Shown: positions 587-61,994 of the stretch, piece by piece
Numbering within the stretch: position 1 is the stretch's first letter
Layout of the letters: every line of letters begins with the position of its first letter
The notes under the pieces: model-generated
The model's input: only the letters and a program-made list of their open reading frames with translations
Database searches by the model: none
What the model was told of the DNA's origin: nothing
Assembly: GCA_951406725.2 (NCBI GenBank)
Contig: OX597820.1
Location: 126,356,001 to 126,420,000 of the forward strand
Direction: 5' to 3'
Source: Octopus vulgaris
Lineage: Eukaryota
DNA: 64,000 nt
Program-made: the position numbers and the translations under genes

Positions 587-753
587 TCACGTTTCATAGA
601 GCTTCACTGAGGAAAAAATCGTCCCTTTACGATTCATGGTTCTGTCAGCCCCGCCGCCCTTGATTTCTGATTTTGGCACAAAGGCAGCAGTTTTGAGAAA
701 GAATTGGGCGACATCGATCTCAGTACTTGACTGGAACTTTATTTCTATCTCCT
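587..753 (-). CDS. Candidate alternative last exon: xEIEIKFQSSTEIDVAQFFLKTAAFVPKSEIKGGGADRTMNRKGTIFSSVKLYET*
   Basis: Acceptor cacctttgtctttcagccttcttccag|AG; phase-1 frame of 55 codons. An AG 11 nt upstream would give the same frame in phase 2. Confidence 0.5.
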
Positions 754-847
754 CTGGAAGAAGGCTGAAAGACAAAGGTGACATCGGTGAGATTTGAACA
801 CGGAAGGGAATGGGCCGCAATTGGAAACTGCAAGGTATTTTGTCCGA

Positions 848-1400
848 CAAGAAGAAGAAGAAGAAGAAGAAGAAGAAGAAGAAGAAGAGAAGAAGAAGAA
901 GAAGAAGAAGAACAACAACAACAACAACAACAAAGAGAAGAAGAAGAACAAGAGCAAGAAGAAGAAGAACAACAACAACAACAAGGAGAAGAAGAACAAG
1001 AGCAAGAAGAAGAAGAACAACAACAACAACAACAAAGAGAAGAAGAAGAACAAGAAGAAGAAGAAGAACAACAACAACAACAAAGAGAAGAAGAACAAGA
1101 GCAAGAAGAACAAGAACAACAACAAAGAGAAGAAGAACAAGAGCAAGAAGAACAAGAACAACAACAAGAAGAAGAAGAAGAAGAACAACAACAACAACAA
1201 CAACAAAGAGAAGAAGAAGAACAAGAGCAAGAAGAACAAGAACAACAACAACAACAAGGACAAGAAAAGGGAGAAGAACAAGAACAAGAAGAAGAAGAAG
1301 ATGAAGAAGAAGAAGAAGAATGGGTAAAGAAGGAAAGACGAAAAAAGAACAAAAGCGAGAACTACTACTACTACTACTATTACTACTATAACAACAACAT
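848..1400. repeat. Compound (GAA)n/(CAA)n/(TAC)n trinucleotide repeat
   Basis: Read directly; explains all six-frame ORFs here. Confidence 0.95.
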
Positions 1401-1613
1401 TTGCTACTACAATAAATATAAACAACGAGAAATAAAGAAAAGAAAGAAATGAAAAAGAAGAAGAAAATTGGCGATGTAACTATCATCAGAACAAATAAAC
1501 AACTTCGTATTTCTCGAATTGCATCGGAATTCTGGAGAAACTAATATATCACCTGCTTTCCGATGATTGCTTCGTAGAATTCTACACTTTGGATCTAGAC
1601 ATGAACTGCAACG

Positions 1614-1717
1614 CTATTCCTCTGTAGACCAGAAGATTCTCACTCCACCCACGACCATCCACCCACTCTCACTCATGCTCTCTATTCGATTCATCCTACA
1701 GAAGTTCTGTGTGAAGC
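1614..1717 (-). CDS. Candidate alternative last exon: xFTQNFCRMNRIESMSESGWMVVGGVRIFWSTEE*
   Basis: tatgttctaaaacgtacag|GC; phase 1 open for 34 codons, other phases close within 8; a duplicate of this acceptor at 1860 has AG changed to AC. Confidence 0.4.
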
Positions 1718-2092
1718 CTGTACGTTTTAGAACATATATTGACGTGTGCAGCGAGTGTGTGTGTGCGTGTGTATAGGTGTGTGTGTGTGTGTATGTGTGC
1801 GTGTGTGTGTGTGTGCGTGTGTGTGTGTGCGTGTTTGTGTGTGTGTGTGTATGTGAAGCGTGTATGTTTTAGAACATATATTGACGTGTGCAGCGAGTGT
1901 GTGTGTGCGTGTGTATGTGTGTGTGTGTGTGTGTGTGTGTGTATGTGTGTGTGTGTGAACGTGTGTATGTGTGTGTGTGTGTGTGTGTGTGAATGTCTAC
2001 GTGCTGTGTTGCTTCACTGGCATAGACTTTTTGGCTATTCCATTAAAGCTAGCAGATAAATTGCATATGTAGGACCAACGAGTGAAGAATAT

Positions 2093-2115
2093 TTAACAGA
2101 AGAGGGCGGACCAAC
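2093..2115 (-). CDS. Candidate short last exon (phase 1 xWSALFC*)
   Basis: cacattctttcgtgctag|GT; other phases are longer, so the frame is uncertain. Confidence 0.25.
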
Positions 2116-2296
2116 CTAGCACGAAAGAATGTGTGTGTGTGTGCGTACATTCAATACCCCGTCCTTTTCTCTCTCTCTCTCTCTCTCTCTCTCTCTAAAC
2201 ATATATACATGCATATATATATATATATATATATATACACACACACACCTATGGTGATACAAACAAGATAAATAGAACTTAAAATATGAGTATATA

Positions 2297-2692
2297 CTCT
2301 TTACTCTTTTACTTGTTTCAGTCATTTGACTGCGGCCATGCTGGAGCACCACCTTTAATCGAGCAACTCGACCCCGGGACTTATTCTTTTGTAAGCCCAG
2401 TACTTATTCTATCGGTCTCTTTTGCCGAACCGCTAAGTAACGGGAGCGTAAATACACCAGCAATGCTAGGAGGACAAACACAGACACACAAACATACACG
2501 CACACACACATATATATATACATATATATGACGGGCTTCTTTCAGTTTCCGTCTACCAAATCCACTCACAAGGCATTGGTCGGCCCGGGGCTATAGTAGA
2601 AGACACTTGCCCAAGGTGCCACGCAGTGGGACTGAACCCTGAACCATGTGGTTGGTTAGCAAGCTACTTACCACACAGCCACTCCTGCGCCT
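2297..2692 (-). mobile_element. tRNA-derived SINE, family A, near full length
   Basis: Head ggcgcaggagtggctgtgtggtaag with A/B-box-like motifs and gagtaaa-repeat tail; same family as 50626-51050. Confidence 0.9.
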
Positions 2693-2847
2693 GTATATTT
2701 TTATTAATATTTTGCGCCTGTATATTTTTATTAATATTTAGCAGAAGCAACAGAGTTACTCAACGGCCGATAGTTCGTGCGTAACACTTATCAAACTAGT
2801 TACAGGTCGAAGGACTATGGGTTTATATAACTGGTTGGTTCGGCTAC

Positions 2848-59234: not shown

Positions 59235-59650
59235 TATATATAACTGAGAATGTCTGTATGTTTGTCTGTCTGTTTGTGTGGATCTCTAAAACTTGAGAAC
59301 TACACAAATCAATTTCATTACACATGCCTTACTTAGGGTCCATGGAGTATCATGGGCAAAAAAATTGTTTAACTTCTTACCTAGGGTGAGCCCACAGCAA
59401 TATCATATCTTCTCTGCTATTTCAGTATTACGTGTTAAAAGTGAAACAAAACATCTCTATATTGTAATGTCACATGCTTTCACTTTAATATTGAAACGAA
59501 TAAAGTAAAACTATTATATCAGAGGGATAAAACCATTAACAGTGGACATCCATTTTGCTAGAAGAAGATCCGCTATGGTTTTATATGCTACACCACTGGT
59601 TTTCAATTCATATTAATCAAATTAATATTCACCTTTTCACCCTTATTATT
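59235..59650 (+). mobile_element. Probable non-autonomous Helitron-like fragment
   Basis: (TA)n-aactgagaatg-(TCTG)n start typical of such repeats; no 3' hairpin seen. Confidence 0.35.
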
Positions 59651-59787
59651 TTAAATTTCAATATATATATATATATATATATATATATATATCTCTATAT
59701 ATATAGATGTATACATATAGATGTATATATAGAGATGAATATATATATATTCACATGTATATATATGGATGTATATATATATATAAT

Positions 59788-60220
59788 TTTTTGCGTAATG
59801 AGATAAAAAAAACCAAGGCTGTATAAATATTAGAGCATTTATAGATAGGTCTTACAGCTGTTTCTAGGGTATTAATTAATAATATCCCTTCATCGGAGAC
59901 GGTGTGAGAGGAGAAATTAAGTCATAGTTAGTTTCGATGTGATACAAATAGAGAGTGAGGTGGAGGAAAGGAAATAGATGTAAGATATGTATGGTTATTG
60001 AATTCGTAAATCCGTTTTATAGGCATAATAGTAAATATGTGTAATATTCCAATATCCTTTGAGTAAAATCCAAAAGTCCAACAGACTTTAATATGAGTCC
60101 ATCCAAATGTAAAGTTTATAAGTAATGTAAGATTCTCTTTAAGTTGGTCATTCCCAGGAGGGAATTTATACAGAATGTAGCAGATCTGAGGGTTGTGTTT
60201 ATCTCATTACGCAAAAACTT
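59788..60220 (-). mobile_element. Penelope-like 3'/pLTR fragment bounded by a short inverted repeat
   Basis: ttttgcgtaatgagataaa / tttatctcattacgcaaaa; contains a hammerhead. Confidence 0.6.
59849..59900 (-). ncRNA. Minimal type I hammerhead motif, U4C variant
   Basis: gtct-CCGATGA-aggg..ccct a-GAAA-cagctg-TA-agac. Confidence 0.7.
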
Positions 60221-60599
60221 CATATATACACACGCTGACATAGAACCAACTTTGAACCATTTATTCGCAATATTACCGAATCTGGAACTTAACTATGGTC
60301 TGTCTATAGCACTTATTCAGCATTACCTGACACCTTTGGGTATTAATGACACCATTATATCTTATATACATATATATATACATGTATATATATAGATGTA
60401 TATGTATAGCTGTATATGTATATATGTATATGTATAGCTGTTGGTATGGCTGTTTTCGTATATGTGGAATAGCATTATAACACATCCGTTTGATATATAT
60501 ATGTGTGTGTGTGTGCGTGCATGCGTGTGTGTGTGAGTGTGTGTATACGTATGCATATATATAAATATATATATATATATATATATATATATATTGATA

Positions 60600-61622
60600 A
60601 AACGGTAAGATAACAAAAGAAAAGAAAGCAAAAGAAAGAAAGAGACCTCAATATTATGTAAATAGAGGAAATTTATCTATACAATAATATGTTACATTAC
60701 TCGGTAGTCAAGATAAAACTCTGAGTTTCAGATGCCGAAGTGGAAATCCACAACACCATCTCTTCGGTTATCTGGCTATTTGAAAACGTTATGAAAAAAT
60801 ACCGTTAAATAAAGGGAAATTACTCTGTTATAACTCTGCTTGCCTGCGTACTTATACATCGCTCGCATTTTTCGTCATAAAAATTATATAAAAATACATA
60901 AAAAATATATAAAAAATATATAAAAAATATATAAATTCTTCTTGGGACATAACATAGAAAGTATGTTCTATCTGTTTTCTTTAGGGGACCAAAAACGTAA
61001 CAGAAAATTAGTCACATGTGGGCATGATCCGAAAAGCTCTGTCCTTGTATTTAGACATGTAGTAGGGTCTAAGCTGCTTTTCCAGATAAGCCATCTCTCC
61101 ATGTCGCATAGACCGCACCTTCCGCTGCCGTTAGTATAGGGCTTACATCTGGCCAAAATCTTCCATTGTATGTTATAATCGACACCTTTATCTCTTAAAG
61201 ACCAAATATGATTGGACAATTGTGTCGCTTTTCTTTTGTTCCAGTGCCTAAAGCTCAAAGTGTGGTTATTGAACCTGGCCTTGAAATTACCCTCTGTAAG
61301 GCCCACGTATTTCTTCGTCGAAACGGTGTCTTTAGTGGTTATAGAGTTTATGGTAGCTTCATATATGATGGTCTTGGACATGCAAGCTCCATTTAGCGGG
61401 CACAATTCTTTATTCCTGCATGAACAGCTGTTTTCTTCTTGTGTTTTTTGTATGTTATGTTTGATTATGTTTTTAAAATTGGTAGTTGAACTAAAACTAA
61501 TTTTTAAATTGTGTCTATTGAAGAGTTTCCTATAAGTATGGTTAACTGGAAAATGTCTATCTATCAGTGCTAGGAAATATTTACCTATATTGAAGGCCAC
61601 CTCGGGTGAGTAAGGGGGCGCA
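60600..61622 (-). mobile_element. 5'-truncated Penelope-like element: uninterrupted GIY-YIG frame plus pLTR
   Basis: ORF 60968-61633: PPYS..CSCRNKELCPLNGAC..IIYEATI..KYVGLTEGNFKARFNNH..CGLCDMER..LNTRTEL..CPH. Confidence 0.92.
60711..60773 (-). ncRNA. Type I hammerhead motif in the Penelope pLTR, U4C variant
   Basis: agataa-CCGAAGA-gatg..gtgga ttt ccac..catc t-GAAA-ctcagag-TT-ttatct. Confidence 0.75.
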
Positions 61623-61627
61623 TATAT

Positions 61628-61770
61628 ATTCAATTACGAATTAAAAGTAGCACTGGTGTTGTTGCCATTATCGACCGTACATGCGTAATATTTGTAATTC
61701 GTAATTACATTAATCATGTGCGGTCGATAATGTTTACAACACTAGTGCTGCTTTTAATTCGTAACTGAAT
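61628..61770. repeat. Hairpin with ~56-bp arms
   Basis: 61628-61683 pairs with 61715-61770. Confidence 0.9.
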
Positions 61771-61887
61771 TTCATCATACGTATATTTGCTGTGACATGT
61801 CAGCAAATGGTTTTACACTGGCGATTCTATTTGTTCCCGGCTCGGTTCAGGTAAGTGATGTTGATAAGCCAGAAAAATAGTGAAATA

Positions 61888-61994
61888 TCAGTATTCATCA
61901 CTGATGAATGAGACCGTGGGTGAGTCGTCCCGCCTGTCTATGACTTTCGGGTGTCTTAACACCCAGCGTTTATGAAGGAGTCGTCCCCAACGCG
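61888..61994 (-). CDS. Candidate last exon: [35 protein letters not shown]
   Basis: gctttgtttcttcgccgtttcgctgccgaatag|CG; phase 1 gives 35 codons vs 12 and 7. Confidence 0.5.

Follow-up and report, generated by a model that had tools for sequence, protein, structure and literature searches.

In Drosophila, the common exons of lola are joined to 20 variant 3′ exons, and those of mod(mdg4) to at least 31, as stated in PMC6237743. A comparable arrangement had been proposed, in a sequence-only reading, for a 64,000-nucleotide stretch of the Octopus vulgaris genome (assembly GCA_951406725.2, contig OX597820.1; G000:C7:126356001-126420000), referred to below as the window, where one gene lying beyond position 64000 on the minus strand would choose among dozens of non-homologous C-terminal tails. 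The variable exons of the two fly genes carry zinc-finger or FLYWCH motifs, and alternative last exons, intronic polyadenylation and exonisation of repeats are ordinary in long introns. We find that the upstream gene exists, and that the window probably holds a single conserved last exon, beginning at 30638, together with part of the last intron; the other sites are likely chance matches or remnants of repeats, and minor side routes would number a few at most. Literature searches, judged by title and the opening of the abstract, turned up no paper about the gene or about a cephalopod last-exon array of this kind.

Positions above 64000 are extended window coordinates, taken from 400 kb of flanking sequence. 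A 337-codon open reading frame (ORF) at extended 99142-100152 matched one protein, P0001, which maps as minus-strand exons; an initial reading of the region as intergenic DNA without a gene was dropped once this match had been mapped. The translation of seven minus-strand exons agrees with the Octopus sinensis RefSeq protein P0003 at 523/523 positions, with canonical AG/GT at all six junctions. An all-length protein search added P0002, whose cluster has two members, the RefSeq proteins of O. bimaculoides and O. sinensis. The gene is the seven-exon orthologue of O. sinensis LOC118764375 (XP_036360993.1) and O. bimaculoides LOC106869506 (XP_014770759.1), already annotated in both species as “uncharacterized protein” without an isoform suffix; on the minus strand, its start lies some 36 kb outside the window. 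The O. sinensis model shows no difference in gene structure from this locus, and the O. bimaculoides model places the start Met in exon 3. In a genome-wide search of G000, the gene was matched at this locus alone. Its parts are as follows.

Extended 100065-99165, minus strand: coding exon 1, from the seven-exon translation.
Extended 98389-98271, minus strand: coding exon 2, from the same translation.
Extended 97379-97268, minus strand: coding exon 3, from the same translation.
Extended 92730-92621, minus strand: coding exon 4, from the same translation.
Extended 92221-92105, minus strand: coding exon 5, from the same translation.
Extended 87599-87467 (G000:C7:126443599-126443467), minus strand: exon 6, ending in the phase-1 donor GAG/GTAAGT (the slash marks the exon end).
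Window 30639-64000, minus strand: the 3′ part, within the window, of the last intron (56,828 nt in all), enclosing the named sites 34584, 35492, 35775, 47776, 47939 and 61994.
Window 30559-30638, minus strand: main last exon (exon 7, coding part), from tblastn of P0002 and P0003 and the seven-exon translation; single-copy in G000.
Window 30530-30535, minus strand: candidate poly(A) signal AATAAA from a motif scan, about 25 nt past the exon-7 stop, its use putative.

The prediction of a minus-strand gene beyond 64000 was thus borne out, with the final exon inside the window, and so was that of a phase-1 donor upstream, which is the exon-6 donor at extended 87467. With two strands and three phases, a match of both by luck would be expected in about 1 of 6 cases. 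Exon 7 follows a TTACAG acceptor in phase 1 and consists, in its coding part, of a split Gly codon, 25 codons and TGA; the identical 25-residue tail that it encodes ends both the O. sinensis and the O. bimaculoides models. A tandem CAG/GAG acceptor is present that would shift the start of the exon by 3 nt, to 30635. The idea of a choice among dozens of non-homologous tails is not supported: the RefSeq models of two species share one tail, that of 30638, and the candidates do not exceed chance expectation in number or phase.

As for lola and mod(mdg4), the locus has constant 5′ exons (1–6), one shared donor (87467) and a long downstream region that could accommodate terminal exons. It differs from the fly genes in having one supported terminal exon, with a second that is predicted only; contigs also hint at a branch at the donor, its partners unseen. 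There is no sense-strand excess of open acceptors in the phase of the donor, and no series of variable exons that are related or share a domain: at an E-value of 0.01, Pfam matched 0 of 10 candidate frames (three read in their longest frame instead of phase 1). With ordinary genes that use alternative last exons, the locus shares the hinted branch, a second ending by prediction, and a long last intron, rich in repeats, in which AG and AATAAA motifs occur; membership in that class would be tentative. Here, 30638 is supported, the second ending (56330) exists in a model only, and contigs stop at the donor in three of four runs, the three being from one study.

The proposed acceptors can be compared directly with these exons. 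An AG precedes all 17 named minus-strand positions, and AATAAA was found at 5150, 12852, 13217, 20273 and 20445. The 14 sites said to give at least 21 codons in phase 1 have 20–62 whole codons, with 15834 and 47776 falling at 20, or at 21 if the split codon is counted. The polypyrimidine tract said to precede the frames is absent from many sites. Acceptors were scored with a matrix set by hand, with no octopus training, which gave five of the gene's six real acceptors 2.7–6.5 and the remaining one −0.9; when all 2355 AGs of the minus strand were ranked with it, 4 of the 14 sites came among the first 100, with 5375 at rank 712 and 15834 at 1346. Nor are the stops in the other frames near-immediate at 34584, whose frames run to 49/36/43 codons, or at 47776 and 47939, where phase 0 stays open for 95 and 28 codons, respectively. 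An AATAAA within 300 nt of the stop is seen at 5 of 14 sites, and within 300 nt after 33.5% of random unique minus-strand positions. It had also been stated that the window holds no constant coding exons, which is correct, but a genuine terminal coding exon, 30638, lies within it and was missing from the named list; the 17 sites include neither 30638 nor 56330. Of the 14 phase-1 sites, nine are located past the AATAAA of the main exon, at 30530-30535, and none of the three homologous proteins identified ends in a named candidate. Homologs with a further tail were absent from both the word-based searches (185–2000 residues) and an all-length HMMER search.

For an unbiased view of strand and phase, we counted the distinct stops reached within 20–70 codons after a scored AG, and compared minus phase 1 with the average over the remaining five combinations of strand and phase; the other strand, the other phases and the flanking regions (400 kb) served as controls. 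The counts were 117 versus 101.8 at a score of at least −2 (p 0.10), 70 versus 59.4 at a score of at least 0 (p 0.12), and 26 versus 25.4 at a score of at least 2 (p 0.49). With AATAAA required they were 19 versus 18.6 (p 0.51), and the cut kindest to an array, where the other frames are limited to 13 codons or fewer, gave 31 versus 21.8 (p 0.056, uncorrected and one of five cuts). Across the five cuts (p 0.056–0.51), no excess of strand and phase is seen. With a permissive threshold, a minus phase-1 tail occurs in 53 of the 68 unique islands, compared with 51–57 for each of the other five classes, and five flanking blocks are alike; when each island is represented by its best AG, minus phase 1 is open in 16 of 68, and the other classes in 13–25. 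Because there is no strand or phase excess, hand-picking could yield a similar list on either strand and in any phase.

Several of the candidates can be traced to repeats. A genome-wide search covered nine of the 14 phase-1 sites, and five of these (753, 20604, 47776, 47939 and 61994) lie in dispersed repeats.

Window 47690-48036, strand not assigned: dispersed repeat with sites 47776 and 47939; 39 other loci at 76–84%, among 40 scored of 409 candidates.
Window 61780-62075, strand not assigned: dispersed repeat with site 61994; 45 other matches at 69–82%.
Window 20250-20700, strand not assigned: old dispersed repeat that includes site 20604 with its AATAAA signals; 22 other loci, of which two extend over acceptor and frame.
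Window 660-850, strand not assigned: dispersed repeat over the acceptor and first half of site 753; 40 other matches at 70–82%.

The same search found 28452 to be single-copy and 34584 nearly so, and did not flag 8782 and 9703 as repeats among the 40 of 972 candidates scored. The copies compared were chosen as top-scoring ones (6 of 39 for 47776 and 47939, 6 of 45 for 61994, 4 of 22 for 20604 and 4 of 40 for 753). Among them, the AG is kept in 6/6 copies for 47776, 4/6 for 47939, 6/6 for 61994, 1/2 alignable copies for 20604 and 1/4 for 753. The phase-1 frame across copies of 47776, 47939 and 61994 varies from 3 to 136 codons, and from 3 to 30 for 61994 alone. Judged from these alignments, the acceptor-like appearance of 47776, 47939 and 61994 is a property of the repeat. 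An origin in repeats is compatible with exonisation, yet removes the need for a special explanation.

Transcript-like sequence was sought around the exon-6 donor. A run search with exon 1 gave no RNA run among the matches listed. The kind of runs X16, X17 and X18, all from one study, is unrecorded; we took them as RNA-like from their small sets of contigs and the coverage of exon 6 beside bare intron. Exon 6 (L003:3467-3599) has a depth of 233–610 in X16, X17, X18 and X1, and the directly flanking bins have no cover. In X1, which is about 95% alike and carries another organism label, a 476-letter contig crosses the donor and continues for 312 letters, the first of which fits the G of the split codon. 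These 312 letters would end at 30326, in a GAT repeat after exon 7, a fit by length and not by letter identity. The same contig starts 30 letters before exon 6, which may point to a second branch at the junction of exons 5 and 6. Over window 8304-10050, at 93% likeness, the four runs gave short pieces only, mostly from the repeat at 9167-9401, a dispersed element of 235 bp with many copies at 87–93%. At that likeness no contig of these runs lay on 8782, 8902 or 9703, which by itself is uninformative; these sites are 21–22 kb past the main exon.

We propose that ordinary cis-splicing would span the 56.8-kb intron from the exon-6 donor to one dominant acceptor, 30638, with polyadenylation following the exon-7 stop. 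In a minority of transcripts, the donor may have another 3′ partner, which could be an intronic exon of cryptic or repeat origin such as 56330, the tandem CAG/GAG acceptor, or unspliced RNA.

A number of observations weigh against a single last exon. Contigs of X16 and X18 stop at 3467, the last base of exon 6, and those of X17 at 3466, one letter past it, and the contigs that stop there run unbroken for 1.9–3.4 kb upstream. From the way contigs are built, such stops are a weak hint of a branch to two or more partners. The extra depth in the donor bin of X16–X18 fits further contigs that overlap exon 6 by about 30 letters, their number being undefined by depth. The loose ends listed are crowded by repeats, and the letters beyond the donor and the branch partners fall outside them. 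The stops could also be explained by the tandem CAG/GAG acceptor, by unspliced RNA or by a minor intronic exon. P0001 ends not in 30638 but in a different phase-1 exon:

Window 56197-56330, minus strand: predicted-only alternative last exon of P0001; phase 1, 43 codons, with an (AGT)n run read as poly-Ser.

Moreover, copy number was assessed for nine of the 14 phase-1 sites, and protein clusters with representatives of fewer than 217 residues were covered through the 50% library alone. The scan has low power for weak acceptors and would be compatible with about 10 further sites scoring at least 2, or with about 20–37 weak ones, and in three of its five cuts (p 0.056–0.12) minus phase 1 ranks first.

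These observations could reflect a small real set of some 3–10 alternative coding last exons, mainly in the last intron and used via intronic polyadenylation in some tissues. Suggested members are 56330, possibly also 34584 or 35775, or else repeats that have been exonised, for example 47939 or 61994. Contig breaks at the donor in three of the four runs, at two offsets (3467 in X16 and X18, 3466 in X17), would allow several partners, 56330 is in the correct phase, and the room left by the scan is sufficient for about ten well-scoring sites. However, the three breaking runs come from one study and their partners are unseen, and both RefSeq models are single-tailed. The acceptor at 56330 is purine-rich and weak (−3.6 on the hand-set matrix versus 3.7 for 30638), and its frame leans on a microsatellite. 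P0001, which lacks exons 3 and 4, was probably derived from this same assembly and would not be independent of it; given the missing exons, it may be a rough model. The first 11 letters of the 56330 exon match the start of exon 7, shifted by 3 nt, at 9/11, and because of this match short junction reads could be misplaced at 56330. In our judgement, it is doubtful that the 56330 ending is real, and a small set of this kind is unlikely.

For dozens of non-homologous phase-1 tails across the whole window, even past the main last exon and from one upstream gene, there is the correct prediction of gene, strand and phase-1 donor, together with the hinted branch and the very long last intron. Against it, strand and phase show no excess, and five of the nine sites tested lie in repeats, with frame lengths that vary widely from copy to copy. 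The sole well-supported tail was not named, 9 of 14 sites lie past the main AATAAA, and no annotated series of isoforms was found. An array on this scale is highly improbable. We give equally little credence to a version in which a lineage-restricted octopus coiled-coil gene would join one phase-1 donor to at least 10 unrelated last exons, many of them transposon-derived, as a repertoire of C-terminal tails in unsampled tissues. A single conserved last exon at 30638, reached across a long intron, remains the reading that we favour.

Further features were noted around the gene and in the window. In X17 and X18, contigs extend to 3315 and 3400 letters, respectively, versus 1492 summed coding-exon letters up to the donor, which leaves about 1.8–1.9 kb of 5′ sequence still to be placed. 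More upstream exons are suggested by a good acceptor at extended 100226, which has a branch-point-like motif. A donor-like AG/GTAC is located at 30556-30559 on the minus strand, 2 nt past the exon-7 stop, and an intron in the 3′ untranslated region is possible from there. The 64,000 bases comprise 14,758 of tandem repeats, 15,047 of repeats recurring elsewhere in the surrounding 464 kb and 34,195 that are locally unique. The longer non-repetitive ORFs of the window look like transposon relics, three of them with weak Pfam matches, below curated cut-offs, to GIY-YIG, HTH_32 and zf-RVT. Those at 22306-22932 (plus strand) and 60968-61633 (minus strand) are related, with the GIY-YIG match in the first, and we take them to be Penelope-like. 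Relics resembling transposases or reverse-transcriptase elements, presumably of mariner and LINE type, occur at 14924-15268, 25987-27140 (HTH_32), 31369-33219 (zf-RVT) and 23901-24200. At 40135-40533, a 79-bp unit is repeated 5.1 times with 100% identity. Within the last intron, inverted arms of 176 nt (57768-57943 and 58252-58427) are 99% complementary across a spacer of 308 nt, and might form a fold-back structure in the pre-mRNA.

Only three protein records were found for the gene, all from Octopus, and words of exon 1 (L004:5160-6150) occur at shares of at least 0.2 in runs of seven organism labels; within the libraries searched, the gene looks lineage-restricted. Pfam gave nothing at curated cut-offs for P0001, P0002 and P0003. 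Look-alikes in the Atlas are generic (0.84–0.92), mostly coiled-coil proteins, with a model pLDDT of 0.48, and point to no named family. The protein is predicted to have a Ser-rich disordered N-terminal half and a coiled-coil C-terminal half, and a role as a scaffold would be a guess.

The gene is real and already annotated, an ordinary coiled-coil gene with a long last intron, and the large array is unsupported. If such an array were true, it would represent a new route to protein diversification, with non-homologous tails recruited from repeats. AT-rich, repeat-rich cephalopod DNA readily gives the succession of acceptor, frame, stop and AATAAA by chance. As it stands, the analysis places an annotated octopus gene at this locus, and suggests that the ending of P0001 is either wrong or minor.

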